Part shown: one piece after another, positions 28,423-53,713 of the stretch | How positions within the stretch are numbered: the stretch's first letter is position 1 | How the letters are laid out: every line of letters starts with the position of its first letter | Source: a virus | Taxonomy: Duplodnaviria > Caudoviricetes | IMG/VR virus record: IMGVR_UViG_3300037484_000435 | Location: 448,001 to 512,000 of that record | Direction: 5' to 3' (one strand) | Length of the DNA: 64,000 nt | The notes under the pieces: generated by a model | Seen by the model: the letters and a program-made list of their open reading frames with translations, nothing else | Told to the model about the DNA's origin: nothing | The model's database searches: none | Program-made: the position numbers and the translations under genes

Positions 28423-28425
28423 GAC

Positions 28426-28719: not shown

Positions 28720-29187
28720 TTAAGACTTGTATTTCTTGAGTTCGGTCTTCAGCCACTCATACAGTTCTTTGAACTCATCTGTGGCACAAGACATTGTTGT
28801 TCTGACACGAACCTCTTCTCGTAGCTCTTCAAGTTGTTCTAGTTCTGGATAGAGCAGTTTCTTCGCTTCTATCCTCGCTTTCTCCAAAGCGGTTCCGTGT
28901 CGACTTTCATAGTAATAGTGATCACGTGAGCACTTATTACCGTTGTAAGGGGCCATCTTGGCGTCAATATCTTCCAATTCTTTTTCGAGACGCACTTTCT
29001 TATCATAGAGGTCAACGGCCCCTAAAAGTTTCCAAGCTTCTCGCTCTTGTGCAACTCGGTCTACATTGGATTGGGCCTCATCAATGTGCTTGCCCACCAT
29101 ACGGACCAACATCTCTCGTTGCTCCTCCATGTACTTTACGCCAAACGATCTCTTCGACACTGTAACATTAGTTGTGCTATCCGCCAT
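28720..29187 (-). CDS. Coiled-coil hypothetical protein
   Basis: Start moved to ATG 29187 (AGGGA RBS). Confidence 0.7.
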   Translation of the reverse strand: MADSTTNVTVSKRSFGVKYMEEQREMLVRMVGKHIDEAQSNVDRVAQEREAWKLLGAVDLYDKKVRLEKELEDIDAKMAPYNGNKCSRDHYYYESRHGTALEKARIEAKKLLYPELEQLEELREEVRVRTTMSCATDEFKELYEWLKTELKKYKS

Positions 29188-29377
29188 AATTCCCTTGCTT
29201 TGATGCGTAACGCATCTCCCTGTAGTAATCAAAGAACGCTTCTGCGTCCTCATGTTTCGCTGGGGCGGCATCGCCCCGATAAAGGGCTCCTGCCCCTTGG
29301 CACACTTCACATACTCCACCTTTAGGGTCCCACCCACTGCCGCGACATACTGTGCATACTCTAATCTTGTCGTACAT
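29177..29377 (-). CDS. Small protein with DnaJ-type CxxCxGxG repeats
   Basis: CTVCRGSG...CEVCQGAG; GGAG RBS. Confidence 0.7.
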   Translation of the reverse strand: MYDKIRVCTVCRGSGWDPKGGVCEVCQGAGALYRGDAAPAKHEDAEAFFDYYREMRYASKQGNYGG

Positions 29378-29415
29378 TGGTTTTTCTCCTTTTTCTTTCG
29401 GTTGAGTAGGTTAAA

Positions 29416-29772
29416 TTAACACCATAACGAGGCCAGCCACCAATTGGCTTCCTCCTTCTCCAGTCCCATATAAACTTTTGCTTTTTGTAGTTTTTCAGCC
29501 CACGCGGGCGTTACTTCCAGTGAGGTAATAATCTCGGGGCCACCTCTGTATGCAGTTGTTACTGAATCCTTTATTGCCAGTATATACATTGCGTAATCAC
29601 ACGAGCAATGAATTTCTAAGGTGCACCCAAATTTTTCTTCCAGCATATCTATGAGTGCATACTTATCAAAGTAACCATCTCCATCAATATGTTCTGGGAA
29701 CCTACTTTTGTAGTCAAAGTCTTCGTCCATGGATATGCCATAACAAAGTATAGCGTCTGTTGATTGGCCCAT
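29416..29772 (-). CDS. Conserved phage hypothetical protein
   Basis: MGQSTDAILCYG N-terminus; RBS. Confidence 0.75.
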   Translation of the reverse strand: MGQSTDAILCYGISMDEDFDYKSRFPEHIDGDGYFDKYALIDMLEEKFGCTLEIHCSCDYAMYILAIKDSVTTAYRGGPEIITSLEVTPAWAEKLQKAKVYMGLEKEEANWWLASLWC

Positions 29773-29773
29773 T

Positions 29774-30094
29774 TTACTCCTGTGTTGCGTAATTAACTAC
29801 AATACCCATAGGACCATCCTCAAATTTGCAGAACCAGAACCCCTTTATCTCGTGGTCTGGGGGACACCCGAATTCGGTATTAAGGAGTTGTGCTCCCAAC
29901 CAAGACTCGAACGTGATAATGCTTCTCTCGGTCTGTAATTTGCTGTAATCATCAACCCACGGTTTAAAGCAATCAGAGCAAATACGTTTACCCTTCTTTA
30001 CTTCATTGTCTAAACGAATGACTACTGGATGGCCCCCCACTATTTGTTTCTTGCACAGAGGACACCTCGTGTTATAATCACCTATATATTTCAC
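29774..30094 (-). CDS. Hypothetical protein (CxxC x2)
   Basis: Packed operon ORF. Confidence 0.7.
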   Translation of the reverse strand: MKYIGDYNTRCPLCKKQIVGGHPVVIRLDNEVKKGKRICSDCFKPWVDDYSKLQTERSIITFESWLGAQLLNTEFGCPPDHEIKGFWFCKFEDGPMGIVVNYATQE

Positions 30095-30345
30095 TTACCA
30101 TCCTCGTAGTCGTCGTCTTCAAAATCCTCAGAGTCGATGTTCTCCATGTTTTCCTGTAGCTCTTCAAGTCTTTCAATTAAGCGACTACCAGCTTCTTGCA
30201 ATTCCACGCCCGCATCCTCAATCTCATCCAGTTTACGGACGTAGTCTTCCAGACTGTCTAGGTCGTCGCCTCCTATGTGGTATGCATCCAATTCACCACT
30301 TAATTCAATTATTCGTTCCTGCAGTTTATCCAATTGTTTTAACAT
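30091..30345 (-). CDS. Acidic coiled-coil hypothetical protein
   Basis: Very D/E-rich. Confidence 0.7.
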   Translation of the reverse strand: MLKQLDKLQERIIELSGELDAYHIGGDDLDSLEDYVRKLDEIEDAGVELQEAGSRLIERLEELQENMENIDSEDFEDDDYEDGK

Positions 30346-30524
30346 ATATCATATTGCTCCTTCAATACACGCCTCGCTTTCCTACAAGCTTTACGGCTGA
30401 TTTCTTTGCGTGCATCACCGTGGCTACCAGGTTTGCAATGCAATATCATCTGCTCCACTACATAGGCACGCGTTTTAACTTTTTTCCTTTTCTTGGCTCT
30501 CATTACGTCCTCCCGCATGCCCAC
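30339..30524 (-). CDS. Small basic protein
   Basis: Packed operon ORF. Confidence 0.55.
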   Translation of the reverse strand: MGMREDVMRAKKRKKVKTRAYVVEQMILHCKPGSHGDARKEISRKACRKARRVLKEQYDIC

Positions 30525-30537
30525 ATTAGTAGGGCAG

Positions 30538-30795
30538 TTAAATTGAAATTTTCATACTACTGAGGCAGGGTCTAAGTTCGTCTGCCTTTACTCTGACCGC
30601 ACACACAAAAGCAACAACATCATCTTGGTAGTCCATGTCTGGGTCATAGTGGTTAAAGTCAACATTTGTCTCATAGATAGCTTGGCTTATTTCAGGAGAA
30701 AAAATCATTTCATACTTTGTTTTCCATGAGGCGTCTGACTCGAAAATTATAACAGCCTTGTCCACAAGGCTAACAAACTTTTGAAACCTTTCCAC
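30538..30795 (-). CDS. Hypothetical protein
   Basis: Packed operon ORF. Confidence 0.7.
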   Translation of the reverse strand: MERFQKFVSLVDKAVIIFESDASWKTKYEMIFSPEISQAIYETNVDFNHYDPDMDYQDDVVAFVCAVRVKADELRPCLSSMKISI

Positions 30796-30830
30796 AGCTC
30801 TGTTCCTTTCGTGAATTTCTTAGTGTTTCA

Positions 30831-31832
30831 TCAATCCAATACTCGGTCTGCCATTTCCAAAACACTTTCTTTAGTCTTCGCTCGTGCTTGAAAGCGGGCA
30901 CGATGACAAAAAACAGCGTCAGGTAGACCAGTAATCCTTGCAAACTCTGGACCTTCTTTGCCCGCCCAATCAACGGGGAGCAATTTCTTTGATGCAAACC
31001 TATCCCCTGACTCAGGAACAGATTGAATAACCCAGTTGTTTGCGGATTCATCAAAGAATACTACAAACAGAATTTCTGGGTATCTAGCAACAGTTTCCCC
31101 CCACATAGCATGTCGCTTAAGTATAAGTAATCTTGGGTCATTTTGCCTAGATGTCTCAATAGCACGCATTACTAGGTCTTGGTCAGTAACCCAGTAACGG
31201 GCCTTCTCAATCTCCCGAGTTAATATGCCTTGAGCTTGTTCTACTGTTTCCATAAATTGTTTATAGAGTATAGCGTCTATCTCGTTTTGAGATTTTCCTA
31301 CAAATGAAGCAGAGGGTGAGATGAACCCTGCGATAAAAGATTGCAGGTCGTATACTCGGTAAGGGGTGTGCGGTGTGTAAGTATCGGTTCCACAGTCAAC
31401 CGCGTCGATACTAGATAGAAGCTTATCATCTATCCTATTGAAAATTTTTTCATCCCCCACAAATTCTGGCCAGAAATGCTTCCCGACCAAGCCTACAGAG
31501 GCGTAAGGCCTACCGTCAGGGCGGGCCAAAGTAAAGTCGGGCATGTGATGATCGAAATCGGTTGGTGGGGCATATTTCATCCCTACATCTACTCGTATAT
31601 CGGCTGTCTGTAATAATTCTTTATCCCGAGTACGAATAACATCAGATTGCGGGTGCACTAGCAAAATTATAGCAACCGCAAAAATATCATCGGCGTGTGG
31701 TGTGCCGTTATGTGTAGCAATTAAAGTCAAAGGTGTATCCATCTGTTTAAATTTGGCTAAAGCTAGTCCTAATACAAGACCGATCCCGATTAGGACTAGC
31801 ACCGACGTAATCTTCTCAATTGTTTGTTTCAT
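30831..31832 (-). CDS. MYG1 family (DHH) 3'-5' RNA exonuclease
   Basis: THNG..HADD, RTRD, VDVG..Y, DHH, G..DAVFCH...F motifs; hydrophobic N-terminus. Confidence 0.9.
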   Translation of the reverse strand: MKQTIEKITSVLVLIGIGLVLGLALAKFKQMDTPLTLIATHNGTPHADDIFAVAIILLVHPQSDVIRTRDKELLQTADIRVDVGMKYAPPTDFDHHMPDFTLARPDGRPYASVGLVGKHFWPEFVGDEKIFNRIDDKLLSSIDAVDCGTDTYTPHTPYRVYDLQSFIAGFISPSASFVGKSQNEIDAILYKQFMETVEQAQGILTREIEKARYWVTDQDLVMRAIETSRQNDPRLLILKRHAMWGETVARYPEILFVVFFDESANNWVIQSVPESGDRFASKKLLPVDWAGKEGPEFARITGLPDAVFCHRARFQARAKTKESVLEMADRVLD

Positions 31833-33367
31833 TACTCCTCTGGGAGGTTTAGAAGGGTTTCTTGGTTGTCCATCACGTAACGTTCTAGCACTTCAGGGTC
31901 ATTCTCAATAACCTCGCCGGTCACTAGATCGAATAAGTGGTTCAAAACCTTTCCAACCGTTCGGCTAGGCTTGACACTTAACAGTCGCATAACGTCATGC
32001 CCATTGAGCAATACGTCTTTAACTGTACGTGCGGACCTTTCTTGTTCTAAATAGGACAACACTTTTGTACGGATGTTGGCCCCTCGTTCTACCACTTCCC
32101 ACATAGGTTCAGCATCTTCTCTACCCAGTGGATAATCTAACCATAGTTCTCGGCCTAGAGTATCTGCCAAGAAAAGCATCATGGACCTATCAACCATATC
32201 CATGTCAAAATTACTTACGCCTATGTGCCTCAACCTGCGAGACATACGCATTTTGTCAGCAGAAAAAGTATGCATGTGTCCACCAATCAGATGTTTAACC
32301 TGATCCATGTCCACATCATATTTATCTGTGGGGCCATAAAGTTTTAGACGAGGGCAGATATGATCATCCAGTATTCGTACCCCTTCAGCATCGTGGCCGT
32401 GAAAAGAATAGCCATATTCTCTGAGTTGGCGGTCGCGATCATTGTCATTGTCCAGTCCCAAAGTTTTGACATCTTGTGTTACTCCTTTTCCTACATCATG
32501 AAATACAGCGGTTACTCGGTCAGTCAGATCGCCACCCATACGGACGACGTTATCTAACACCATAAGGGTATGCCCTCCCACACATTCAGAGTGCCATACG
32601 TTTTGAGGCATATCAAAGAGACATGCCAATTCGGGAATCCACATATCCAAAATACCGAGTTCTTGGAGAAATGTCATTCCCAGAGGTGCACGTTCCGTGG
32701 ATAAAGTACCTAGAAATGCATCTCGAAAACGCTCTCCACTGAGATTTCTGACTCTCCGAACTACTTGTGGATTGTTAAGAACATCGAAAACCGCCGTTTC
32801 TGGAACTAAACCATAACGACAGACAAACATAATCCACCGAAGAATGCGGAGAGCATCTTCAAGGATGCGGTCTTCTGCATTCCCAATGAAACGGGCAACC
32901 CCGTCCTCGATGTCTTGGATTCCTCCAACATAATCAATAACTTCTCCTGTCAACGGATCACAAAGTAACCCATTGATGGTTAGGTCACGTCGTTGGACAT
33001 CCCACATGGGACCCATTTCGTTGTCAAATGTAAAGATGGGTTTTACGTCACGGCGATTTTCGCCATGGCCGTGGTCTAGACGTGTAGTGGTCAGTTCAAT
33101 CTTGCAGTTACTCTCATCGTCGATAAGAGTGATTGTGCCATACTGTTCGCCCGTTGGAATAGCTTTGAACCCGAGGTTCTTAGCCTCCTCTGGGCTTCTT
33201 GTATGACACATATCCATATCATTAAAGGATCGACCCATAAGTAGGTCGCGAACTGGGCCACCTACAATATAACCTCGGCCACCCCTTTGTAGGAGGGCAC
33301 GGGCTATTCTCTTAGAGAACCGCACTTCTTCAGTATCAGGTAAAGCTAGTCGAGTAGTCCGTGCCAT
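31832..33367 (-). CDS. cca: Class II tRNA nucleotidyltransferase (CCA-adding) with HD domain
   Basis: GG.VRDLL.G...DMD, RRDLTIN, EDALRILR, ER; HD domain HT...HDVGK. Confidence 0.92.
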   Translation of the reverse strand: MARTTRLALPDTEEVRFSKRIARALLQRGGRGYIVGGPVRDLLMGRSFNDMDMCHTRSPEEAKNLGFKAIPTGEQYGTITLIDDESNCKIELTTTRLDHGHGENRRDVKPIFTFDNEMGPMWDVQRRDLTINGLLCDPLTGEVIDYVGGIQDIEDGVARFIGNAEDRILEDALRILRWIMFVCRYGLVPETAVFDVLNNPQVVRRVRNLSGERFRDAFLGTLSTERAPLGMTFLQELGILDMWIPELACLFDMPQNVWHSECVGGHTLMVLDNVVRMGGDLTDRVTAVFHDVGKGVTQDVKTLGLDNDNDRDRQLREYGYSFHGHDAEGVRILDDHICPRLKLYGPTDKYDVDMDQVKHLIGGHMHTFSADKMRMSRRLRHIGVSNFDMDMVDRSMMLFLADTLGRELWLDYPLGREDAEPMWEVVERGANIRTKVLSYLEQERSARTVKDVLLNGHDVMRLLSVKPSRTVGKVLNHLFDLVTGEVIENDPEVLERYVMDNQETLLNLPEE

Positions 33368-33995: not shown

Positions 33996-35105
33996 ATGAA
34001 ATTAACCGTCCCTCTAAAGCTACTAACCGATGGAACTCAATCTAAAATCCTTCACGATACTATTCTGGAGGCTAATAGGGTAAGTAATTTAATCGCGTCT
34101 ATTGCTTGGGAACGGCATACAGTAGGTAAGATTGCTCTACAAAAATTAGTTTACCATGATCTACGTAACAAAACTACTCTGTCATCACAAATGTTAATTC
34201 ATGCGATTCATAAAGTTGCTGATGCTTATCGGATTAACAAAAAGGTTGTTCCCCAGTTTAACCCCAAAGGTTCTATTGCTTATGATGCACGGATACTTAC
34301 CGTTCGGAATGAAAAACAATACATCACAATATGGACAACATTGGGACGCATCAAAGTTGCTTACACGTCAGGCACTAAACAGCTTAAGTTATTAAATCAA
34401 ACTATCAAGATTGGGGAATGTGACCTCATCTTGAGAAATAACCGATGGTACCTACATTGCTCTCTAGAAGTTCCTGAGAAGCACCATCAAAAACCCCAAG
34501 GCATGTTGGGAGTCGATCTCGGAATTAAGAATATTGCGGTAACTTCCGACAATAAGGTTTATTGTGGTGCCCAACTTAACAGTTTACGTAAACGCCACTG
34601 CCGTTTGCGTGCTAAATTGCAATCGAAGGGAACCCGTTCCGCAAAACGGTTGCTACGTAAACGTAGTAAACGTGAATCTCGGATGGCGCGCAACGCTAAT
34701 CACATAATCTCCAAACGTATTGTTGCCACGGCTAAATGCACGAAGCGTAGTATTGCCCTTGAAAATCTTAAAGGCATTACTAAGCGGACTAAGGTTTCTA
34801 AAGCCCAGCGTAATCAGCAACATAGTTGGAGTTTTTACCAACTTAAATCTTTCATTGAATATAAGGCCCGCCTCGTGGGTGTAGAAGTAGTTCTAGTTAA
34901 TCCTAAAAATACTAGCATCACTTGCCCTAAATGTGGCTTAATTCGAAAATCCAATCGTCGTGACCGAGATCACTTCGTTTGTAGACGTAAAGAGTGTGGT
35001 TACGCTGACCATGCTGATTACGTGGCCGCTTTAAACATCGCGTCTAAAGCGGCGGTTGTGGGGCATAGCCCTAACGTCAACCAACCCAACGTTTCGGTGG
35101 CATAA
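33996..35105 (+). CDS. tnpB: TnpB RNA-guided endonuclease
   Basis: RuvC GVDLG / ALENL / ADYVAALN, CPKC...C zinc finger. Confidence 0.95.
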   Translation: MKLTVPLKLLTDGTQSKILHDTILEANRVSNLIASIAWERHTVGKIALQKLVYHDLRNKTTLSSQMLIHAIHKVADAYRINKKVVPQFNPKGSIAYDARILTVRNEKQYITIWTTLGRIKVAYTSGTKQLKLLNQTIKIGECDLILRNNRWYLHCSLEVPEKHHQKPQGMLGVDLGIKNIAVTSDNKVYCGAQLNSLRKRHCRLRAKLQSKGTRSAKRLLRKRSKRESRMARNANHIISKRIVATAKCTKRSIALENLKGITKRTKVSKAQRNQQHSWSFYQLKSFIEYKARLVGVEVVLVNPKNTSITCPKCGLIRKSNRRDRDHFVCRRKECGYADHADYVAALNIASKAAVVGHSPNVNQPNVSVA

Positions 35106-42897: not shown

Positions 42898-43110
42898 GTC
42901 AATTCCTTGTCTTTATGAGATAGACTTGAAAAAATTAAGTCTAATTGACTAGCCCCCACCCAATGAGTGGAAACGTTATTTAGGTCATGCTACCTGAAAA
43001 TGCTCCTCAAGTTTTCAGCCCTAGCGTTTAGGATTAAACAGTTCTGAGAGGTAGGAACAGTGTTCTAAACTTAACAAGCCTTTATAACTGGGCGATGAGG
43101 CTCTAACCCT
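42898..43110 (+). ncRNA. omegaRNA (HEARO-like) of IscB
   Basis: GTCAA...TTGACTAGCC...CGTTA...TACC...TGCTCC..AAGT...AAACAG...CAGTG...GGCGA.GAGG landmarks directly upstream of iscB. Confidence 0.88.
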
Positions 43111-43144: not shown

Positions 43145-44383
43145 GTGTTAGTTTATGTATTAAACAAATGTGGAAAGCCTTTAATGCCCACTACACCACC
43201 TAAGGCTAGAATTTTGCTTAAGGGAGGCAACGCTAAAGTTACCCGAAGAACTCCCTTCACCATACAATTACTCTATGGAAGTTCGGGCTATAAACAACCT
43301 ATAATGTTGGGTGTAGATTCGGGTTACGAGCATGTTGGATTGAGTGCTATCACAGAGAAACAAGAATTATTTTCAGCAGAAGTTTTGCTTAGAAAAGACG
43401 TTTCTAAATTGTTAACAGAACGTCGTGCTTATCGTCGTAATAGGCGTGATAGGAAAGTTCGTTATCGTCAACCTCGGTTTCTGAACCGCGTTAGAACAAA
43501 ACGTAAGGGCTGGCTCGCCCCCCCTATTCAGCACAAACTGGATAGCCATATTAAGGTAGTAAATAAAGTTTCTGAAATATTACCAATTACAAACATCATA
43601 GTAGAAGTAGCCAATTTTGATGTTCAGCGTATCAAGAATCCTGAGATTAAGGGTAAAGAGTATCAGGAAGGTGACCAGTTTGGTTTTGAGAACGTAAGGG
43701 CGTATGTATTGCACCGAGATGAGCACAAATGCCAGCATTGTAAAGGTAAATCTGGTAACAAACATCTTAATACCCATCACATTGTTTTCAGAAGCAAAGG
43801 AGGGAGTGATAGGCCCGATAACCTTATTACATTGTGTAAAACATGCCACGACAAACAGCACAAGGGTTTAATCAAACTCAAGGTTAGCCATAGCCGTAGT
43901 TTTAAGACTGAAACTTTTATGTCTATTGTTAGGTATAAAATTGTTGAGCGATTACGTGAGTTGTATAATAACGCGGATACAACATACGGCTATATTACAA
44001 AGGCGTTACGTAAGCAGTTATTTTTAACTAAATCACATATTAACGATGCTTTCATAATTGCTGGGGCTAACATACAAATCCGCAATACCAAAAATTATCT
44101 AATTAAACAGGTTCGTAAACAAAATCGTAAACTATTCAAGGGTGCCCGTAGTCACACTAAGAACACTGCTCAAAGATTTCTCTTCGGTTTTCAACGTTAT
44201 GATAAAGTAAAGTTTAATAACAAAGATTATCACATATTCGGAAGAAGGCAGAGAGGGTGTTTTAAACTAAGTAATCTAGAGTCAGGACTCTTAAAAACTG
44301 AACCCACCTATAAGAAACTAAAACTTCTGGAAAGCTTCAAAACATTTTTATGGGAGGTAAAGATGGTCCCTAACAATGTTTAG
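43145..44383 (+). CDS. iscB: IscB RNA-guided endonuclease
   Basis: PLMPT N-terminus, GVDSG, Arg-rich bridge helix, IVE, HNH (CQHC...HH...SD..DNL..LC..CH), H.NDA. Confidence 0.96.
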   Translation: MLVYVLNKCGKPLMPTTPPKARILLKGGNAKVTRRTPFTIQLLYGSSGYKQPIMLGVDSGYEHVGLSAITEKQELFSAEVLLRKDVSKLLTERRAYRRNRRDRKVRYRQPRFLNRVRTKRKGWLAPPIQHKLDSHIKVVNKVSEILPITNIIVEVANFDVQRIKNPEIKGKEYQEGDQFGFENVRAYVLHRDEHKCQHCKGKSGNKHLNTHHIVFRSKGGSDRPDNLITLCKTCHDKQHKGLIKLKVSHSRSFKTETFMSIVRYKIVERLRELYNNADTTYGYITKALRKQLFLTKSHINDAFIIAGANIQIRNTKNYLIKQVRKQNRKLFKGARSHTKNTAQRFLFGFQRYDKVKFNNKDYHIFGRRQRGCFKLSNLESGLLKTEPTYKKLKLLESFKTFLWEVKMVPNNV

Positions 44384-44403: not shown

Positions 44404-44604
44404 ATGGATTGGCAGATTGGAGACATAGCAGTTATTGACCAAGATTATGATCGCTCAGCAAGCGACAGTCTATTCTATTTACTGGAGTTCTCGAACGATA
44501 CAGCAAGTGGTTACCTAGAAAAAGATAATCAGAAAATCGATTATTCCTGCCCCATATCAAAAATCAGAAGAGTTGCAAAAGTAATAAAGTTCCACACACA
44601 ATAA
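44404..44604 (+). CDS. Hypothetical protein
   Basis: Packed operon ORF. Confidence 0.6.
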   Translation: MDWQIGDIAVIDQDYDRSASDSLFYLLEFSNDTASGYLEKDNQKIDYSCPISKIRRVAKVIKFHTQ

Positions 44605-44624: not shown

Positions 44625-45293
44625 ATGGCTCTTAAAGTTGGCGTAATCGGAGGCACATTCAATCCTATTCATAACGGACATTTACGGCTGGCGGAAGTCA
44701 TGCTGGAGGCAGAGAAATTTGATAATATTATTTTTGTTCCCTCTTTTAACCCGCCCTTAAAAGACCAAGACATCGTTTCCTTTGACCAGAGAGTGAGCAT
44801 GCTTCAACTTGCCATAGAGGACAATCCCTCCTTTGTAATCTCTACAATTGAACAAGACCTCTTAGGAAAATCCTATACCTTCAACATGCTACAAAAACTA
44901 ATAGAAGAGTCCCCCAGTGTAGAGTTTACTTTTATCCTCGGGGCCGAGTGTTGGAATCAGATGAAGTCTTGGTATAAACCCATTGAAACTCTCGGTCTCT
45001 GTGATTTCCTGTTTGTGTGTGATTCTGAACGAAGGTGTGCTGGGGATATTGCTTGGTCTGAGGGCGACCCGATGGTAAGACAGGCTCTTGGGGTAGTGCA
45101 TAATAACAAGAAAGAATTTGTGCATCCCTCAGGAACTCGGGTAAGGTTCGAGGTTCACCCAACCCCTAAGATACGATCGACAGAGATAAGGTGGATATGT
45201 GCAAAGGGAAAAAGTTGTAGATACCTTCTACCAGAGAGTGTCTACAAATATATTCTACAACACAGGCTTTATAATTTATCCCAAAAGTTTTAA
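44625..45293 (+). CDS. nadD: Nicotinate-mononucleotide adenylyltransferase
   Basis: GGTFNPIHNGH, P...PP.K, RV.ML.LA, SYT...L, FILGA, W, STEIR, YI..H.LY. Confidence 0.93.
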   Translation: MALKVGVIGGTFNPIHNGHLRLAEVMLEAEKFDNIIFVPSFNPPLKDQDIVSFDQRVSMLQLAIEDNPSFVISTIEQDLLGKSYTFNMLQKLIEESPSVEFTFILGAECWNQMKSWYKPIETLGLCDFLFVCDSERRCAGDIAWSEGDPMVRQALGVVHNNKKEFVHPSGTRVRFEVHPTPKIRSTEIRWICAKGKSCRYLLPESVYKYILQHRLYNLSQKF

Positions 45294-45349
45294 TTAACTT
45301 TCTAACTAAAATAGCTACTAAAGTTATCTTACACGGAGTTATTTTGTAG

Positions 45350-46435
45350 ATGATTGTGAAACATGCCTATAAATATCACATATACCCTAATACTGACCAA
45401 AAGAAACAACTTGAATCTTACTTTGGATGTTCTAGGTATGTCTATAATCATTATTTAAAACAAAGAATTGATTGCTATATGTTGCACAAAGTCGGTCTCG
45501 GGTATGTGGACAACTGTAGTGACCTAGTATTTCTAAAGAGACAAAAGCCTTGGTTGTCTGAAGCCATCGCTCAGTCATTACAGGCATCACTCAAGGATCT
45601 TGAATCAGCTTACACTAATTTTTTTAGAGGGACCACAAAATTTCCGAGTTTCAAGAAAAAACACAACAAACAAAGTTTTCGTGTTCCCCAAAAATTCAAG
45701 GTCAATTCCACTTCAATTACTATCCCTAAGGTGGGCAAGATCAAAGCCAAAATACATCGTCCAATAGGAGACAAGATCTGCAATGTTACTATTAGTAAAA
45801 CTCCTGCAGGAAAGTATTATGCTTCTGTGTTATGTGAAGTTTATATTGAGGATCCAAAATTTGAAGGCAATATAATCGGGATCGATTTGGGGATTAGAGA
45901 TTATTTGGTTGACAGTAATGGGAATCGCGTCCCTAACCCGAAATATCTTCAAAAGTCCTTAGTGAAGCTTAAACGACTCCAACAAATACTAAGTAGCAAA
46001 GTTCAAGGTTCTAGTGATTACCATAAATTACGGCGTAAGCTTGCGAAACTACACGAAAAGATTCAGAACCAACGTTCAGATTTTCAGCATAAACTTGCTT
46101 TACAACTGGTGCGTGAAAACCAAACCATCTGTTGTGAAACTTTAGCTGTAAAGAGGATGTTGACTGAGTCTGATCCAGTGCTAGCCAGATACATTTTAGA
46201 TGCAGGATGGTACCAGTTCATTTCTTTTTTGAATTACAAAGGACCTTGGTATGGTTGCCACATAAATCAAATAGAGCAGTTTTATCCTAGCAGTAAACGG
46301 CATTTCGAATGTGGTTATATTAATGAACATCTAAACCTTTCTGATAGAGAGTGGTTATGCCCACAATGTAACTCGATGGTTGATAGAGACCTTAATGCTG
46401 CTAAAAATATTCTCGCCGCGGGGACCGCGGTTTAA
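45350..46435 (+). CDS. tnpB: TnpB RNA-guided endonuclease
   Basis: HTH AYKY.IYP...Q, RuvC GIDLG / CETL / DRDLNAAKNI, zinc finger; probable right end TAGTCCAC at 46482. Confidence 0.95.
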   Translation: MIVKHAYKYHIYPNTDQKKQLESYFGCSRYVYNHYLKQRIDCYMLHKVGLGYVDNCSDLVFLKRQKPWLSEAIAQSLQASLKDLESAYTNFFRGTTKFPSFKKKHNKQSFRVPQKFKVNSTSITIPKVGKIKAKIHRPIGDKICNVTISKTPAGKYYASVLCEVYIEDPKFEGNIIGIDLGIRDYLVDSNGNRVPNPKYLQKSLVKLKRLQQILSSKVQGSSDYHKLRRKLAKLHEKIQNQRSDFQHKLALQLVRENQTICCETLAVKRMLTESDPVLARYILDAGWYQFISFLNYKGPWYGCHINQIEQFYPSSKRHFECGYINEHLNLSDREWLCPQCNSMVDRDLNAAKNILAAGTAV

Positions 46436-46561
46436 AGCCAGTTAATACTGGAAATTATTATCCTTGGATGATAATAGTCCACCTCGTGCCTGAGCCCGTG
46501 TATATATTTATAAAAGAAAAGAAATTATATGCGGGCATGTACACATAAGAAAGGAATCACA

Positions 46562-48187
46562 ATGCTACCCACAAAAATCCTAGCAGACGGGATTGAAAGA
46601 GCTTTTGAACACCGAAAGTTTCCATGGGATTTCTATTTTATCGCGATGGCAGAAGCTGATTGGCGGGCTGGTCGAGCAGATTTACCAGCAACCAAGAGTT
46701 TTTATATACGAAACGCTCCCTTTGGCGGAAGTTACTGTCTCCTTGGTGGTATCACTGAGGCTCTAGTAACTATTAAGAATCTGGATTTCCTCAGCAAAGA
46801 TTTCTTTCACGGTGCTGTTCATATGGGCTCTTCTCCAGATTTTGTGAATTGGCTGGCTGTTCGAGAAAGGTTGCGTATTCGTGTTATTGGTGGGAGAGAG
46901 GGAACTGTGTTCTTCCCCAACGAACCTATCGTAACAGTACAGGGGCCATTAGCAGATATTCGTTTGGTTGAGGGTATTCTGACTTATGCCCTGAACTTTT
47001 CTTCTTTGTCGTTAACTAAGTGGTATCGAGTCGTAAAAGCGGCCCGCCCAGGACAAGTTTTGGATTTCTCTTTGAGAAGGGCACAGAACAGTAGACGTGC
47101 ATCCCTGAACGCAATGCTGGCAGGATGCTCTGCCACATCTAACTGCGACATAGCAGAATTCTTTGACGTTCCCGTCCGAGGCACAATGGGACATGAATAC
47201 CCAATGGGTCATGGAGACGTTAAGATAGCTTTTGAGCAGTGGTTGGAATATCAACCTAATCGACCTATCGGTTTGATTGACACCCTGCAATGCTTGGAGA
47301 ACGACTTTCCTCTTTGGCTCGACGCTGTATACAAATATCGGGAAAAGATTAAGAATGCAGGGTCTCCTATTTGGGGATGGCGAAATGATTCGGGTGACCT
47401 CGGTTACCTAACAGTTGAGCAATACAGACGCTTCCTCAACCATGAGTTGGCAAAGGACGAATGGTTCCGAGAGCGGATGAGGGTTATTTTAACGAATGAG
47501 CTGGACGAGTATACAATCACAGCGATTATAAACCAAATAAGAGATGATGCTGAGCCCGCAGGTTTAGATGTCCATGATATCAAAAGTCGGATTATATGGG
47601 CGGCGGGCACGCGACCTGGAGTTTGCGAAGACCAGCCCTCTCTGGGCGGTGTAGCCAAACTTATGGAAGTAGACGGTTGTCCTACTCTTAAACCAGCATT
47701 GGATTCGGATGGACATCCTGGTCCCAAGACGTCGATACCAGGATTTAATCTATCGTGCTTGGTGCCCAATGGAGACAGCAGTATCGCATGTTGTCTAATA
47801 TATCCTGCACATCATTATAATCTTGTGTCCGATGGAGCAGGTGGGTGGTCTTTACACAATAAAAAGACAAGCAAGACACCCAAAACAATAGTCACCATGC
47901 ACAAGGATTCCAGCTCGTCTTTTATGGAGTTGAAAAATCAAGGTTTGATTGCACAGCAAGATTGCCTCTACGATTCTACCCAAGGTGCTTCCGTGCTAGG
48001 TGACGCGTGGCTGGAAACACTAGATGGAGTTACAAAGCGGATAGAAGATGGTATTGGTAGACTCCACTTCACAATGACATCGAGGCTGGTGAAGCCCCAC
48101 AGTATGAAAGTATCGGTAACACCCGACCTCTTTGAGCTGCGGGATTCTATGTTGAAAAATAAGACCTTGATGGGAGAGAAATCTTAA
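46562..48187 (+). CDS. pncB: Nicotinate phosphoribosyltransferase (Gram-positive/archaeal-type PncB)
   Basis: DFY...M, R..PF.G.Y, DF.LRRAQ, TSN......P..GTMGH, LIDT, R.DSGDL, NELDE, LGGV.KL. Confidence 0.85.
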   Translation: MLPTKILADGIERAFEHRKFPWDFYFIAMAEADWRAGRADLPATKSFYIRNAPFGGSYCLLGGITEALVTIKNLDFLSKDFFHGAVHMGSSPDFVNWLAVRERLRIRVIGGREGTVFFPNEPIVTVQGPLADIRLVEGILTYALNFSSLSLTKWYRVVKAARPGQVLDFSLRRAQNSRRASLNAMLAGCSATSNCDIAEFFDVPVRGTMGHEYPMGHGDVKIAFEQWLEYQPNRPIGLIDTLQCLENDFPLWLDAVYKYREKIKNAGSPIWGWRNDSGDLGYLTVEQYRRFLNHELAKDEWFRERMRVILTNELDEYTITAIINQIRDDAEPAGLDVHDIKSRIIWAAGTRPGVCEDQPSLGGVAKLMEVDGCPTLKPALDSDGHPGPKTSIPGFNLSCLVPNGDSSIACCLIYPAHHYNLVSDGAGGWSLHNKKTSKTPKTIVTMHKDSSSSFMELKNQGLIAQQDCLYDSTQGASVLGDAWLETLDGVTKRIEDGIGRLHFTMTSRLVKPHSMKVSVTPDLFELRDSMLKNKTLMGEKS

Positions 48188-48248
48188 ACGCACGAATAGG
48201 TAAGGGCATTTTTTAATGTCCTTACCTTAACACACGAAAGGATTAGAC

Positions 48249-50105
48249 ATGACTACTACGAGGGTAGCGTTAGCACAAATAAACCCTACCGTTGGGGACT
48301 TTGACCTGAACAAAAGTCTCATTCTAAACTCTTTGACCTTGGCCCAGCGCGCAGGATGCGACATAATCGTATTTCCTGAGCTTGTTGTTTGTGGCTATCC
48401 TCCAGAGGACCTGCTGTTGAAGCAATCCTTTTTGACAAAATGCCACGAAGCTGTGGAATCTATAGCAGAGGAAGCTACAGATATAGTTGCATTAGTGGGG
48501 TCCCCTTGGAAGTTCAATTGGGGTAAACACAGACACGAATTCAATAGAAATGGGGAAGAACTCTACAACGCGGCAGTAATCTTGGCTGATGGTAAAGTGC
48601 AAGATGTCTACTTCAAAACTGAACTCCCCAACTACGGTGTGTTTGATGAGAAGAGATATTTCTCTCGACTCGAAACACCCGAGTGTTTAGTGTTTGTCAT
48701 GAATGGTGTCCGTTTTTGTATTACCATTTGTGAGGATATCTGGGTCGAGCAGTCTCCTGTGAGAACACTCGCAGCAATGAATAACGTGGATGTCACGTTA
48801 AACTTGTCCGCTTCTCCTTTCTTCGCAGGCAAATTAACTACGTCCCGTTACGAAGCATTGTCCCAGTATTGCCTGAAAACTGGCACTTCCCTGATATATA
48901 CAAATTTAATCGGGGGACAAGATAGCCTAATCTTTGATGGTACTAGTCTAGTGATGGACCATCGTGGTAAGATTCGTTACGTAGCAAAAAGATTCGAGGA
49001 AGATTTTTTGGTAGTGGACCTAGATGAAAGCTTTATGAAGAACAAGACTGAGGGGTATATGTTCCGTGACTACTACTCTACCACGTCTTCCATTGAAAGG
49101 GACTTTGCTCAGAAGTTTGAGACCATTGGCAACGCGAAATCCACAATTCAACCTGATACTCCACAACAACATGGACCATTTGATGATTTTACGGATGTTC
49201 TGCGTGGGCAAACTGAGGTAGAAGAAGTCTACTTGGCTTTAAAGAGGGGCCTTATAGATTATGTTGACAAGAATGGATTCCCTAAAGTTGTTGTTGCTGT
49301 GAGTGGTGGTATTGACTCAGCGGTCACTCTTGCACTCGCTGTAGAAACCTTGGGGATCAACCGAGTAGTTGGTATAACGATGCCTTCCAGAATTACATCT
49401 GACGATACGCAGGACGATGCAGTAACGCTGATGGAAAACTTTGGAATTCAGCAAGACACAATCCATATTGAACATCTTGTTAATATGTATATTGAGTCTA
49501 TTGCACATAGTAAAATCTGGGCTAATGCACTAGAAGAAAATCCTGTGGTGTGGGAAAACATTCAAGCACGTATCAGGGGTAACGTCTTGATGGCACTCTC
49601 CAATCAGTTCGGTTGGTTGGTCCTCTCCACAGGCAACAAGAGCGAGACCGCAGTTGGATATTGCACCCTATATGGGGATATGGTAGGAGGATTCTCTATC
49701 CTAAAAGACGTTTACAAGACGTTGGTTTACAAAATTGGCCATTACATCAATATGAAGCGCCATGAGAGGGGTCTTCTTGGGATCCCCATAAGTACTTTTG
49801 AAAGGCCACCTAGTGCGGAGTTGGCCGAGGGACAAACTGACGAGGAAGTGTTGGGTCCCTACAGTGTTCTGGATAAAGTTCTCGAAGCTTACATTGAGAA
49901 AGAGATGTCCGTAACGGAAGTAAAGGAATTCTTTGGGGCATTGGCCTTTCCTCCCTTAAAAGACATGAAAGCATATGTTGAAAAGATTGTAAGGATGGTA
50001 GACCGAAACGAATACAAACGTCGACAAAGTTGTCCTGGTGTGAAAATAACTCCGAAAGACTTTGGGAAGGATAGGCGTCTACCAATAACAAACGCCTATA
50101 TTTAA
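48249..50105 (+). CDS. nadE: Glutamine-dependent NAD+ synthetase
   Basis: Nitrilase domain with E-K-C triad (FPEL, K..LPNYGVFDEKRYF, ICEDIW) plus synthetase domain SGGIDSA, ENIQARIRG, TGNKSE, PSAEL, EYKRRQ. Confidence 0.97.
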   Translation: MTTTRVALAQINPTVGDFDLNKSLILNSLTLAQRAGCDIIVFPELVVCGYPPEDLLLKQSFLTKCHEAVESIAEEATDIVALVGSPWKFNWGKHRHEFNRNGEELYNAAVILADGKVQDVYFKTELPNYGVFDEKRYFSRLETPECLVFVMNGVRFCITICEDIWVEQSPVRTLAAMNNVDVTLNLSASPFFAGKLTTSRYEALSQYCLKTGTSLIYTNLIGGQDSLIFDGTSLVMDHRGKIRYVAKRFEEDFLVVDLDESFMKNKTEGYMFRDYYSTTSSIERDFAQKFETIGNAKSTIQPDTPQQHGPFDDFTDVLRGQTEVEEVYLALKRGLIDYVDKNGFPKVVVAVSGGIDSAVTLALAVETLGINRVVGITMPSRITSDDTQDDAVTLMENFGIQQDTIHIEHLVNMYIESIAHSKIWANALEENPVVWENIQARIRGNVLMALSNQFGWLVLSTGNKSETAVGYCTLYGDMVGGFSILKDVYKTLVYKIGHYINMKRHERGLLGIPISTFERPPSAELAEGQTDEEVLGPYSVLDKVLEAYIEKEMSVTEVKEFFGALAFPPLKDMKAYVEKIVRMVDRNEYKRRQSCPGVKITPKDFGKDRRLPITNAYI

Positions 50106-50231
50106 CAAGCATCCAATATAGTAAATGTGGGGAAACGTCGTATTCAATTCAGGAATAGACCCCCCCACTTACTTTTAACAAACCAAGAACGTATATTGAT
50201 AAGGAAATAAGGAGGATGAATGTAATAAAAA

Positions 50232-51251
50232 GTGAAGAGCACAGAAGTTAAGGAGTGTCTTGAATGTGGTATAATTAAGACACGGGAAGAATTTAGTAAA
50301 AATGTTGCATCTACAGATGGCCTAAATTTAAGATGCAAAGAGTGTGACTCCGCTCTCAAAAGAAAACGTTACGCTGATAGGAAGATGGGCCCAGTTAGGG
50401 CGTGGAGTCAACCAAAGATAAAAGAGGGAGCTAAAGAATGCATTAAGTGCCATATATCAAAATTCTTACATGAGTTTGACCGAGGTTCCAATATGCGTGG
50501 TGGGAGACTAAACGAATGTAAAACCTGTAGAAGTGCTTACAGGAAAATGTATAGAGATACAAATCCTGATAAGCTACTGGAGCAAGAACGGCGTTCTAAG
50601 AAATTACATATTCAAGCAATAAGAGACAGCGCAAAAGATTACTGCACCAGAAACAAAAACAAAATTAAGTTTTACAACAAGAAAGTACAGGAGGAATTTA
50701 GTAAAAAAGTGGCTCTGTTTCTTGGTGGCAAATGTGAAATGTGTGGGTTGGAAACAGATTGGTATGAGGTCTATGATTGTCACCATAAAAACTCTGAGGA
50801 AAAAATGTATAACGTGGCTAGTTTACGCCACAAGAATTGGACAACGATAGTTATTCCAGAATTACTGAAATGTTCCCTCGTTTGCCGTAACTGTCATAGA
50901 GTGTTAACACAACAGATCGCCAGATCAAAGCCCAACAGAGAAAAATATTGTGATTATATGGATAACAGACGGGACAATCATAAACAAAAATGTGTCGACT
51001 ACGCGGGTGGTGAATGCCAAATATGTAACTTGAGAACAACAAACTACGCTGTGTATGATTTCCACCATGTGAACCCAGCAACTAAAATATATAATATTGG
51101 GCCTCTTAATTCCAAAGATTGGGAGGAGGTCGTTCAACCTGAGCTTAACAAGTGTGCCTTGTTATGTGCTAATTGTCATGTATCCCTACACACAGGACGC
51201 CATAACAGTCTAACTTTAATTGCTGGACCAATAAAAATCATAACTGACTGA
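50232..51251 (+). CDS. Multi-zinc-finger protein with two tandem HNH domains (homing endonuclease-like)
   Basis: Two KECxxC...CKxC fingers and two GG.C..C...D.HH...EL.KC.L.C.NCH units. Confidence 0.8.
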   Translation: MKSTEVKECLECGIIKTREEFSKNVASTDGLNLRCKECDSALKRKRYADRKMGPVRAWSQPKIKEGAKECIKCHISKFLHEFDRGSNMRGGRLNECKTCRSAYRKMYRDTNPDKLLEQERRSKKLHIQAIRDSAKDYCTRNKNKIKFYNKKVQEEFSKKVALFLGGKCEMCGLETDWYEVYDCHHKNSEEKMYNVASLRHKNWTTIVIPELLKCSLVCRNCHRVLTQQIARSKPNREKYCDYMDNRRDNHKQKCVDYAGGECQICNLRTTNYAVYDFHHVNPATKIYNIGPLNSKDWEEVVQPELNKCALLCANCHVSLHTGRHNSLTLIAGPIKIITD

Positions 51252-51278
51252 TTTCACAAAGAAGAGAAAGGGTATCTG

Positions 51279-52160
51279 ATGGAATTAGATATCAGAAATG
51301 TTGGATTGATTGTCAAACGAAATGACCCACAAGCTATGGGACTTGCACAAAGGGTAATAAACTATATCCTAGACAATAAGCCTTGGGGTATAAACATTCC
51401 CCTATCGGACTGCGTGGATATACCCAATTACACAAGAGTGAACACACATTTGGAAGAAGATATGTGCCGTTACTCAGACATCCTCATCGTTTTGGGTGGT
51501 GACGGAACCATGTTGCAGGCCGCGTCCTACACCCTACCCAATAAAAGCGTGCCTGTTCTGGGTATTAATCTGGGGAGAGTAGGGTATCTATCAACGATTC
51601 CTCCTGAAAGTGTTTTTGATGAACTAGATAAACTCTCCAGCGGGTTTGTCAACGTCTACGCACAAAGGAAAATGCTTTGCGTTAACAACCCCGAAAAGGA
51701 AGGAGTTTTCTACCCTGTTCTCAATGAGGTGGTGCTACACTGGTCACAAAAGGCTAGGTTGATTAACCTTTTTCTTTCGATACAAGGTGATGGACAGTTT
51801 GAGGTTAGAGCAGACGGAATCATCATTTCGACTCCTACTGGTTCCACTGCCTACAATTACGCGGCGGGCGGGCCACTAGTGCACCATGACGTGGGAGCCT
51901 TGATAGTAACGCCTATTTGTCCGTTTTCTGGCCTAAAAGGGTCGTTAATGCTACCTATGTCCTCAACCCTGAAGATTAATTCCGACGAGAGGAACAGTCA
52001 AGTTAGTGTAACGATCGATGGTTATAGGGATTTTCCGTTGAAGTCAACCGATACCCTCTACATTGAGGAATACCCCACACCATTTGTTCTTCTCAATCCT
52101 AGGATTTCTAGCTATCTGGAAGTCCTACAAACAAAACTAAACGTTGTTGGAAAGGCATAG
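51279..52160 (+). CDS. nadK: NAD kinase
   Basis: GGDGT, GINLGRVGYL, LNE, DG.IISTPTGSTAY..AAGGP, IDG. Confidence 0.96.
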   Translation: MELDIRNVGLIVKRNDPQAMGLAQRVINYILDNKPWGINIPLSDCVDIPNYTRVNTHLEEDMCRYSDILIVLGGDGTMLQAASYTLPNKSVPVLGINLGRVGYLSTIPPESVFDELDKLSSGFVNVYAQRKMLCVNNPEKEGVFYPVLNEVVLHWSQKARLINLFLSIQGDGQFEVRADGIIISTPTGSTAYNYAAGGPLVHHDVGALIVTPICPFSGLKGSLMLPMSSTLKINSDERNSQVSVTIDGYRDFPLKSTDTLYIEEYPTPFVLLNPRISSYLEVLQTKLNVVGKA

Positions 52161-52164: not shown

Positions 52165-52341
52165 ATGACTGAGCAATTAGTTTGTTTACGCGCTGACTCA
52201 TGTGATCGGGGATGTTTCCACAAGCATCCACATGCACAGAACGAATGGTGTGGTAGGCAATGTCCAGACCATGATGAGGCAGAGTGTATACCGCTCCCCC
52301 TCACTCTACTACATGATGACGTGGAGGAAACAGATGAGTGA
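52165..52341 (+). CDS. Cys/His-rich mini-protein, array member 1
   Basis: C-x4-C-x3-C-x-H-x3-H-x4-C-x3-C-x7-C plus acidic tail. Confidence 0.75.
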   Translation: MTEQLVCLRADSCDRGCFHKHPHAQNEWCGRQCPDHDEAECIPLPLTLLHDDVEETDE

Positions 52342-52693
52342 AGTTAGAATAATATGCTCACAAGTAGACAAATGTGGTAGACATTGCTCCCACAGGCATT
52401 TACATCTCGAAGTAATTAACTGCACACAAGAAGCATGTCCTAATTTTGACGGACAGGCTCTCTGTATCGTAGCTGAACCTACATTCTTGGGCGACCTTGT
52501 GGGGAGGAAGAGGATTAACATGCAAGTGATATGCCCTAAAGCTAATAGATGTAAAATTGGATTCTGTATACACAAAGTTCCCCATTTAGAGACGCCCGAC
52601 TGTTTTAGGGGGTGTGCTAGCGAGGGAGCAGGCGCGTGTGTAGAACCAAAAACTACTTTTCTAGATGACTACACAGAGGAAGAGGATGGGTAA
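52334..52693 (+). CDS. Cys/His-rich protein with two array domains (members 2-3)
   Basis: ICSQVDKC..HCSHRHLH and ICPKANRC...CIHKVPH. Confidence 0.8.
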   Translation: MSEVRIICSQVDKCGRHCSHRHLHLEVINCTQEACPNFDGQALCIVAEPTFLGDLVGRKRINMQVICPKANRCKIGFCIHKVPHLETPDCFRGCASEGAGACVEPKTTFLDDYTEEEDG

Positions 52694-52877
52694 TATGAAA
52701 GTAATTTGTGCGGAGGCAAGTTCGTGCAGATTCACATGTGTTCATAAACTTGCACACTACAAGCTATTCGATTGTAATGATAACTGTGACAATCATCCTA
52801 ATGGCGTTGGTGCATGTATAATAGTGGAGGGGTTTCCAACCATACTTTATGATGAAATAGAGGAGGAAGATGAGTAA
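52686..52877 (+). CDS. Cys/His-rich mini-protein, array member 4
   Basis: ICAEASSCRFTCVHKLAH...DEIEEEDE. Confidence 0.75.
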   Translation: MGNMKVICAEASSCRFTCVHKLAHYKLFDCNDNCDNHPNGVGACIIVEGFPTILYDEIEEEDE

Positions 52878-53070
52878 CGTACCCATAAAAACGGTAACCT
52901 GTCCCCGTGGTCACTCTTGTTATGTAGTAAGGTGTAAGCACCAAGGACCACATTATGAAATAACAGCCGTGTGCTCCCAGAAGCGTAATGTTTGTACTGG
53001 TGCCATAGCAACAGGTATAGAATGTAAACTTGCCCTGTTGGGCGACGAAATAGAGGAGGAAGATGGATAG
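52870..53070 (+). CDS. Cys/His-rich mini-protein, array member 5
   Basis: TCPRGHSCYVVRCKHQGPH...DEIEEEDG. Confidence 0.75.
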   Translation: MSNVPIKTVTCPRGHSCYVVRCKHQGPHYEITAVCSQKRNVCTGAIATGIECKLALLGDEIEEEDG

Positions 53071-53713
53071 AATTAAATATCCGAGAACTCCCCACCTTCC
53101 TTGGTCTAGGGGGGCAACCAATGATGATAGGGTGTTGTCCTCAGTAGACCACTTTGAAGGGAAGGAAATTGTTATAACAGAAAAGTGTGACGGGGAAAAT
53201 TTTTCTCTCTACCGAGATTATTGTCATCCTCGTTCTACTACCTACTCCCCACACCCATCGCGGGATTGGATTAAGAAATTTCATGCACAAATACGACACG
53301 AAATACCAGAGGGATGGAGGGTCTGTGGAGAGAATTTGTTTGCAAAGCACTCAATTCATTATCGAAATCTTCATTCTTATTTTTATGCATACTCTATCTG
53401 GGATGACCAAAATATGGCACTCAGTTGGGACGAGACTACAGAATACTGTGAACTCATCGGAATCAGAACGGTCCCTCTTATACATAGAGGACTATTCCGA
53501 GAGGATAAGACAAGACATCTTCTATCAAGAGCAGTGGATTTTGAGGCTGTTGAAGGATACGTCATCAGATTGGCTTCATCTTTTGCTTTCAAAGATTTTT
53601 CTACGTCGGTAGCAAAATATGTACGTGCCCGTCATGTACAGACGGATGACCACTGGATGTATCAGCCAGTAATCCCCAATTTATTAATGGAGAATAATGA
53701 GACCACCCAATGA
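53063..53713 (+). CDS. RNA ligase (minimal nucleotidyltransferase, Rnl2-like family)
   Basis: KYPRTPHLPWS, TEKCDGEN, CGEN, EGYVIR, AKYVR..HVQT. Confidence 0.88.
   Translation: MDRIKYPRTPHLPWSRGATNDDRVLSSVDHFEGKEIVITEKCDGENFSLYRDYCHPRSTTYSPHPSRDWIKKFHAQIRHEIPEGWRVCGENLFAKHSIHYRNLHSYFYAYSIWDDQNMALSWDETTEYCELIGIRTVPLIHRGLFREDKTRHLLSRAVDFEAVEGYVIRLASSFAFKDFSTSVAKYVRARHVQTDDHWMYQPVIPNLLMENNETTQ

Follow-up and report, generated by a model that had tools for sequence, protein, structure and literature searches.

The four enzyme genes

The window analysed here is a 64,000-nucleotide stretch of viral DNA, bases 448001-512000 of the 545,322-bp IMG/VR virus record IMGVR_UViG_3300037484_000435, and contains a predicted operon for the supply of nicotinamide adenine dinucleotide (NAD+) and its phosphate, NADP+. 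Coordinates refer to the window, except those with the prefix C1, which refer to the full record. Four co-oriented, full-length genes on the plus strand encode, in this order, the nicotinate-mononucleotide adenylyltransferase NadD (44625..45293), a PncB-type nicotinate phosphoribosyltransferase (PRTase) of 541 amino acids (46562..48187), a two-domain, glutamine-dependent NadE (48249..50105), and the NAD+ kinase NadK (51279..52160). They are separated by two genes for mobile nucleases, a TnpB (45350..46435) and an HNH/EndoVII-type endonuclease (50232..51251). An earlier note, made from the letters of the window, had described the same arrangement. The extent and orientation of the four genes and the integrity of their catalytic motifs are borne out by family models and by alignments to solved structures.

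NadD exceeds the cut-off of its family model (TIGR00482, 145 versus 112 bits), and its closest matches in the PDB are the bacterial NadD structures 8aih and 1kam. Its motifs GGTFNPIHNGH and IRSTEIR, of the HxGH and ISSTxxR types, are intact and are kept with conservative changes in all orthologues. NadE combines a CN_hydrolase with an NAD_synthase domain, reaches 612 bits with NF010588, whose cut-off is 479, and matches the PDB entries 5kha and 4f4h at 1e-118. The Glu-Lys-Cys motifs of its nitrilase domain and the SGGIDS PP-loop are found in all orthologues. NadK is recognised by PF01513 and PF20143, matches 7mh7 at 3e-35, and has intact GGDGT, NLGRVGYL and DGxxxSTPTGSTAY motifs; the PHROGs database includes a family that matches this protein and is labelled 'unknown function'. 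The PRTase, which belongs to family II of the nicotinate phosphoribosyltransferases (NAPRT), carries the domain PF17767 (NAPRTase_N). Its reading frame is open from position 46529, and the ATG at 46562, which follows a ribosome-binding site and gives the 541-amino-acid product of the public database gene call, is probably the true start.

The enzyme steps are deduced from the families to which the proteins belong and from the catalytic residues that they retain. PncB would convert nicotinate and phosphoribosyl pyrophosphate (PRPP) from the host to nicotinate mononucleotide (NaMN), which NadD would adenylate with ATP to nicotinate adenine dinucleotide (NaAD). NadE would then amidate NaAD to NAD+ at the expense of ATP and glutamine, and NadK would phosphorylate a part of the NAD+ pool to NADP+ with ATP or polyphosphate. 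The earlier note had assigned the enzymes to this same route from nicotinate to NADP+, and the family matches and motifs of all four are in agreement with it.

Probable substrate of the phosphoribosyltransferase and probable origin of nicotinate

The PRTase matches the NAPRT of Enterococcus faecalis (2f7f) at 2.9e-35 and also human NAPRT. Its Tyr36, Arg183 and the histidine of its GTMGH motif align with Y17, R163 and H205 of 2f7f, which are active-site residues of the E. faecalis enzyme, the histidine being the one that is autophosphorylated (PMC4442680). A search of the PDB with the profile of the PRTase family, at E values up to 1, returned nine entries, eight of them named nicotinate PRTases and the ninth (2i14 of Pyrococcus furiosus) deposited as nicotinate-nucleotide pyrophosphorylase; NAMPT was not among them. 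The AlphaFold2 model of the protein (mean confidence score pLDDT 90) gives the same picture in Foldseek. It aligns with E. faecalis NAPRT 4mzy at E = 1e-34, with a TM score of 0.85 and a root-mean-square deviation of 3.3 Å, and with human NAPRT at 6e-25, whereas NAMPT reaches 5e-15 at best and the new Namat structures about 3e-13, with TM scores of 0.60-0.67. Based on sequence and model, the phage PRTase is thus very probably specific for nicotinate.

These comparisons also bear on a different view of the locus, according to which the PRTase is in fact a Nampt- or Namat-like enzyme that acts on nicotinamide with PRPP or ADP-ribose pyrophosphate, so that the cluster would be a disguised version of the phage NAD+ reconstitution pathways NARP1 (Adps and Namat) or NARP2 (Nampt and Nmnat). 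One fold is common to all type II PRTases, and the NAPRT assignment is not clean in every respect. The protein stays under the cut-offs of the NCBIfam equivalog models for NAPRT, and PF04095, for which it is the single match in the 545-kb genome, gives 18.5 bits only, which is also under the cut-off. Moreover, the phospho-histidine is followed by glutamate, a position taken by serine in both family II enzymes of known structure, human and E. faecalis NAPRT (PMC4442680). This His-Glu pair, however, is invariant across the PRTase family, including a cellular member whose gene is directly flanked by a PncA (isochorismatase) gene and by nadE; cellular members of this family of about 540 amino acids also adjoin the gene for the NAD regulator NrtR. 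PF17767 is present in the phage protein, while PF18127, the Nampt/Namat domain, finds no match in it. In addition, NadE is co-inherited with the PRTase and would be unneeded unless deamidated intermediates were made. Finally, no PRPP synthetase (Prs) or Prs-like Adps is encoded, as PF13793 has zero matches in the 545-kb genome, whereas all control genomes were positive. A nicotinamide-using PRTase is therefore very unlikely. The distinction that the earlier note had drawn between a PncB-type and a Nampt-type PRTase, and hence between this cluster and NARP1 or NARP2, is upheld by the Pfam domains, the profile search, the fold and the missing Adps.

The earlier note had found no nicotinamidase and no PRPP synthetase in the window and had proposed a search of the remaining genome for pncA, prs and Nudix genes. 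The window indeed lacks the first two, and that search found no Prs anywhere in the genome, but a nicotinamidase-like protein of 354 amino acids is encoded at C1:19668-20732, about 65 kb from the operon if the ends of the record are joined. The protein is of the long type and belongs to a large family with more than 1,800 representatives. In the alignment of this family, the predicted catalytic residues D52 and K213 are invariant, and no fewer than 90% of the members keep C274. Among the predicted metal ligands, H179 is invariant, and D100 and H102 are likewise conserved in at least 90%. The family profile retrieved yeast Pnc1 as the first PDB match (8.6e-12), followed by the nicotinamidases of Acinetobacter baumannii, Mycobacterium tuberculosis, Pyrococcus horikoshii and Leishmania and one more entry so named, and other cysteine hydrolases ranked after these six. 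With the structural model (pLDDT 96), the top 15 Foldseek matches were all nicotinamidases, at target-normalised TM scores of 0.71-0.80 bar one at 0.53. A genome-wide search with PF00857 was negative, the 354-residue protein included, and the model matches 3 of 36 family members, weakly; because the profile and fold searches do detect a nicotinamidase, this negative result appears to be a matter of sensitivity. No Pfam fusion domain was found in the 600-residue homologues of the protein.

The closest homologue, 80% identical, is encoded on a related 658-kb phage contig. In the genome studied here the gene belongs to a cassette (C1:14334-20732, L016) that also encodes a PP2C phosphatase (PF13672) and two proteins of 620 and 272 amino acids without clear Pfam match, apart from a weak STALD/SLOG hint at E = 0.034. 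The contig of a homologue elsewhere has the same cassette neighbours plus an LSDAT/SLOG protein, and the cassette may represent a regulated nicotinamidase module. The long nicotinamidase probably feeds nicotinate from nicotinamide into the pathway, and the full encoded route would then lead from nicotinamide via nicotinate, NaMN and NaAD to NAD+ and NADP+. The same search found a stand-alone Nudix protein of 161 amino acids (C1:536618-537103; L002:1441-1926), whose sub-threshold matches are mostly to NadM-Nudix, NrtR-like and NAD-diphosphatase models. As far as these matches go, it may handle ADP-ribose or NAD.

Phage ownership and inheritance of the operon

The window is part of a single virus record that CheckV rates as 100% complete and that contains a terminase match, which speaks for a phage and not, as the earlier note had considered, for a piece of host chromosome. 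Phage genes occur on both sides of the cluster, with PHROG matches to an RtcB-type ligase, RNA ligases, a CCA-adding enzyme, HNH endonucleases and TnpB-type transposases, and the GC content of the cluster is in line with the remainder of the window. No near-identical DNA was found among deposited phages. Homologues of the PRTase with 65-84% identity occur on other large contigs, the longest of which are records of 658 and 647 kb. In IMG/VR, a search with the single PRTase protein retrieved no close relatives, and a search with an alignment retrieved only distant pairs of PRTase and NadE at 35-38% identity.

Genes for NadD, PRTase, NadE and NadK occur together in every one of the five related huge-phage contigs that could be read. 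L005/L006 and L007 share the gene order orf66-nadD-PRTase-nadE-nadK-RNA ligase, where orf66 denotes a small open reading frame (ORF), and their four NAD genes are spaced by about 12 bp or overlap. They are also contiguous, with gaps of 16-56 bp, on the contig of P0002 (the 84% relative), whereas L008 has a few unrelated ORFs among them, including two small ones between nadE and nadK. With the exception of L008, nadD abuts the PRTase gene or is 26 bp away from it, and in L005, L007 and the contig of P0002 nadE is separated from nadK by about 12-16 bp. Compared with L005-L008, NadD is 45-46%, the PRTase 64-73%, NadE 58-63%, and NadK 50-59% identical. Overall, the orthologues are 45-84% identical. 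Their synonymous sites are saturated, and dN/dS is therefore not computable, while dN amounts to 0.19-0.50 and the motifs persist. The unit orf66-nadD-pncB-nadE-nadK is thus ancestral in a clade of megaphages from sediment and other environments, in which it is tightly or nearly tightly packed.

Phylogeny agrees with this picture. In maximum-likelihood trees, a single clade unites the ten phage-type PRTases (SH-aLRT 100), and ten phage-type NadK proteins lie on one side of a branch (SH-aLRT 99). The nearest cellular PRTases, from Saccharibacteria and other metagenome-assembled genomes (MAGs), are 40-54% identical to the phage protein, and no cellular NadK exceeds 41% identity. The earlier note had called for phylogeny and co-occurrence to tell a phage clade from recent capture, and both favour the former. 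One could still imagine that the cluster is a passenger without phage function, captured recently from a host or brought in by mis-assembly of host DNA, since PRTase homologues exist in Saccharibacteria and other MAGs and mobile nucleases both flank and interrupt the genes. Against this stand the presence of the four genes in five other phage-like contigs, including those of 658 and 647 kb, their contiguity without nucleases in three of these, the monophyly of the phage PRTases and NadKs, the distance to any cellular NadK, and the phage-like surroundings and composition of the locus. The probability of such an origin is accordingly minimal, lower even than that of a nicotinamide-using PRTase. 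Co-occurrence in the relatives, monophyly and saturated synonymous divergence together argue for an old phage operon.

The nucleases that now surround and split the operon have a different history. The TnpB between nadD and the PRTase gene is an RNA-guided nuclease of the IS200/IS605 type (NF040570, 303 bits versus a cut-off of 100; Pfam OrfB_IS605 and Cas12f1-like_TNB). The free-standing homing endonuclease between nadE and nadK has no Pfam match, and is identified by phrog_2255 (2.2e-44), phrog_3106 and phrog_1035. Upstream of the operon, a HEARO (omega) RNA (42898..43107, plus strand; Rfam RF02033, 127.5 bits versus a gathering score of 83, E = 1.2e-26) is followed by a gene for an IscB RNA-guided nuclease of 412 amino acids (43145..44383, plus strand; NF040563, 377 bits versus a cut-off of 175) with the Pfam domains RRXRR and HNH. 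This mobile element, which was missing from the earlier note, stands outside the pathway. None of the five related contigs has a TnpB or HNH gene inside the cluster. An IscB gene beside nadD is likewise absent from L005, L006, L008 and the contig of P0002, and the IscB gene of L007 lies about 3 kb farther upstream. TnpB, the HNH endonuclease and the adjacent IscB are thus recent arrivals in this lineage, and their insertion left the four enzyme genes undamaged. A second IscB copy, 54% identical, occurs at about C1:27.3-28.5 kb (L015); the copy in L007, at another position, is 57% identical. The window carries a heavy load of mobile nucleases in general, with three TnpB-type genes (phrog_506 / NF040570) inside 32 kb (15081-16244, 33996-35105 and 45350-46435) and HNH endonuclease genes at 7385-8197, 22976-23995 and 50232-51251.

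The immediate neighbours of the enzyme genes are partly conserved. Directly upstream of nadD, orf66 (44404..44604, plus strand) encodes 66 amino acids without family match. The ORFs that occupy this place in L005 and L007 share 50-55% identity with it, 28 residues being invariant, and orf66 is a possible fifth operon member. Downstream of nadK, short Cys/His-rich ORFs occupy positions 52165-53070 on the plus strand, the largest of which (52202-52693) has no family match. This interval is lacking in L005, where the ligase gene begins 15 bp past nadK, and is reduced to a single ORF of 72 amino acids in L007. The following gene (53063..53713, plus strand) encodes a small RNA ligase (PF09414, 1.2e-31; phrog_24030) that is 61-63% identical to the product of the gene after nadK in L005 and L007, and it is the conserved downstream neighbour of nadK in L005-L007. 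In some relatives, a radical-SAM protein of 300 amino acids is encoded after nadK or the RNA ligase gene (L007:15323-16225; contig of P0005). It was dismissed as a member of the pathway, as it has an RlmN-like cysteine motif and tblastn found no copy in the genome studied here. Paralogous DnaJ-domain proteins of about 390-430 amino acids are encoded just downstream of the NAD operon in L005 (16183-21540) and L007 (17005-20007).

Elsewhere in the window, the minus strand encodes an RNA-repair set (21186-33367) with an RNA ligase (21186-22280), RtcB (25974-27131) and a CCA-adding enzyme (31832-33367). A protein of the T4 gp30.3 family (16799-17296, minus strand; PF08010, 6.6e-54), with a weak NADAR match, is a possible counter-defence protein that removes ADP-ribose. 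PADLOC models gave 0 matches to the ten proteins tested. Scans for promoters and terminators returned no more sites than in shuffled sequence, and an Rfam scan of positions 40-56 kb matched the HEARO RNA alone.

Probable cofactor supply and possible counter-defence

The cluster is best explained as a phage-owned operon for NAD(P) supply, a reading to which we assign a probability of roughly 0.75. The operon would raise or maintain NAD+ and NADP(H) through a long and costly infection, and its product would feed enzymes of the phage itself. The same genome encodes an NAD-dependent DNA ligase (LigA), an NADPH-dependent thymidylate synthase (ThyX), the RNA 2'-phosphotransferase Tpt1 (C1:42338-42847), and a poly(ADP-ribose) polymerase (PARP) in the form of a 464-residue ORF at C1:~101.3-102.7 kb (L029/L030; PF00644, 54.8 bits), a domain with matches in 0 of 14 control genomes. 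PARPs are rare in bacteria. LigA, Tpt1 and PARP would consume NAD+ and ThyX would depend on NADPH, so the presence of these genes provides an ordinary metabolic reason for the operon. Refilling of the pool after host NADases have cleaved NAD+ to nicotinamide could be a by-product or a second purpose. Because only the nicotinamide half of NAD+ is needed, the route would be indifferent to the ADP-ribose product that an NADase leaves behind.

Several observations weigh against this explanation. The route is expensive in ATP relative to NARP1 and NARP2, and since the genome lacks Prs, PRPP would have to come from the host. The putative nicotinamidase gene resides in the separate cassette with the PP2C phosphatase and its product has no PF00857 match, and for both reasons the protein could serve another system. 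NadK and the PRTase score under the NCBIfam equivalog cut-offs, so that their exact substrate preferences are inferred. The nearest cellular homologues scatter by gene over Saccharibacteria and gammaproteobacterial MAGs, Desulfomonile/Acidobacteriota, and cyanobacteria, and thus point to no single host. Finally, the sole public run that contains the sequence is a DNA run of a sediment metagenome.

An alternative that overlaps with NAD(P) supply and differs from it in the main selective reason is that the operon and the nicotinamidase constitute a fourth NAD+ reconstitution pathway, selected mainly against immunity based on SIR2, TIR, SEFIR or RES NADases, with NadK restoring the NADP+ pool that collapses along with NAD+. 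Several points speak for it. NARP2 and NARP3 are plain salvage branches too, and they were shown to neutralise Thoeris, DSR or SIR2-HerA. NADases that leave ADP-ribose 1-phosphate (ADPR-1P) defeat NARP1 (November 2026 review), whereas a route from nicotinamide alone would ignore them. RES toxins reportedly deplete NADP as well as NAD (PMC11535050). The region is also rich in counter-measure genes, namely those for RtcB, RNA ligases, the CCA-adding enzyme and the gp30.3/NADAR protein. On the other hand, no known anti-defence family was detected; a search for Tad2 with PF11195 gave no match. Synthesis looks constitutive, as in NARP2, which the phage's own demand for NAD(P) explains equally well. 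The earlier note had further expected the intermediates to escape the NADases. That the deamidated intermediates are safe from NADases is a conjecture, and the end product, NAD+, is still cleavable. Immunity as the main selective force is thus possible but clearly the less probable explanation, and a counter-defence function, plausible by analogy with NARP2 and NARP3, is about as likely, or slightly less so, to be demonstrable. Supply and counter-defence are not mutually exclusive, and computation does not separate them.

The earlier note had regarded the cluster as a new, third route. The November 2026 review covers no pathways beyond NARP1 and NARP2. A third pathway is already published as NARP3 (Yan et al., 2026, Sci Adv, PMC13464706), and clusters of pncB, nadD and nadE in jumbo phages were reported in 2024. 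In that study, 174 of 668 gut jumbo phages encoded complete NAD+ salvage or Preiss-Handler pathways, with clustered pncB-nadD-nadE for example in Kuafu_71 and Kuafu_19 (Li et al., 2024, Microbiome, PMC11662467). With its 545 kb, pncB, nadD and nadE, the genome studied here falls within the definition of these NAD-jumbo phages, which have more than 200 kb and all genes of at least one salvage or Preiss-Handler route. They share with it the large genome, the complete gene cluster and the predicted synthesis of NAD+ from nicotinate, and metabolic support and possibly counter-defence were proposed there too. The comparison is one by description, not by sequence; the paper does not mention nadK, NADP or a nicotinamidase. 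Its examples are phages of the animal gut with predicted Bacteroidota hosts, whereas the present clade stems from sediment and other environmental metagenomes.

The experimentally characterised pathways resemble the operon in some respects. NARP2 of Vibrio phage KVP40 (Osterman et al., 2024, bioRxiv 10.1101/2024.02.11.579819) also rebuilds NAD+ with PRPP and independently of ADP-ribose, with a type II PRTase and a HIGH-motif adenylyltransferase, and its synthesis is probably constitutive as well. It uses nicotinamide directly in two steps via nicotinamide mononucleotide, whereas the operon would employ an NAPRT-type enzyme, NaMN and NaAD, NadE, an upstream nicotinamidase, and NadK. With NARP1 it has in common the presumed end, the restoration of NAD+ in the infected cell. 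NARP1 re-uses ADP-ribose, however, and the present genome has no Prs-like Adps, no Namat-like PRTase and no predicted re-use of ADP-ribose. NARP3 (PnuC and NadR) is likewise a standard salvage branch encoded by a phage, and was shown to refill NAD+, but it imports nicotinamide riboside. No NadR-type adenylyltransferase was found here, as NadD and an RfaE-like protein account for all PF01467 matches of the genome; no search for PnuC was made. Sinorhizobium phage Phosso (PV764938, 469 kb), a cultured jumbo phage, carries in GenBank the annotation of an NAD kinase at a distance of about 5 kb from genes for NAD salvage. Those genes are PnuC and NadR-like, thus of the NARP3 type, and do not share an operon with its NadK, whose identity is only about 34% across 65% of the length. 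In bacteria and archaea, NrtR-regulated NAD salvage operons of the composition pncA-pncB-nadD-nadE, to which nadK, prs and Nudix genes may be added, have the same gene content, and the nearest cellular PRTases adjoin NrtR, PncA and NadE. The phage operon differs by the lack of NrtR and Prs, and by being viral with clades of its own.

Literature searches for a phage NAD kinase and for 'NARP4' found no relevant paper. The association of nadK with a Preiss-Handler cluster, fixed in this clade, and the separately encoded long nicotinamidase are possibly new, and the clear signs of long vertical descent within a group of megaphages are a further addition. A more far-reaching proposal would unite the five enzymes as a fourth phage NAD pathway that has become fixed among related phages of 0.5-0.66 Mb, starts from nicotinamide alone, proceeds via deamidated intermediates, copes with any NADase chemistry, including ADPR-1P and cyclic ADP-ribose, and is the first to restore NADP+. 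In this complete form the proposal is rather unlikely, and it is put forward tentatively.

Depletion of NAD+ is a common end-point of bacterial immunity, and three phage counter-pathways have been shown experimentally, none of which is of the Preiss-Handler type or restores NADP+. The locus offers a compact, intact and evolutionarily fixed four-gene operon together with a candidate nicotinamidase, and raises the questions of whether a deamidated route outruns NADases and whether NADP+ becomes limiting in NAD-depleted infected cells. If the operon serves only to top up cofactors for the phage ligase, PARP, Tpt1 and ThyX, it would be an ordinary, though unusually complete, auxiliary metabolic module. 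In either case, the 2024 observation of NAD-jumbo phages extends to megaphages of sediments, where nadK travels with the pathway.

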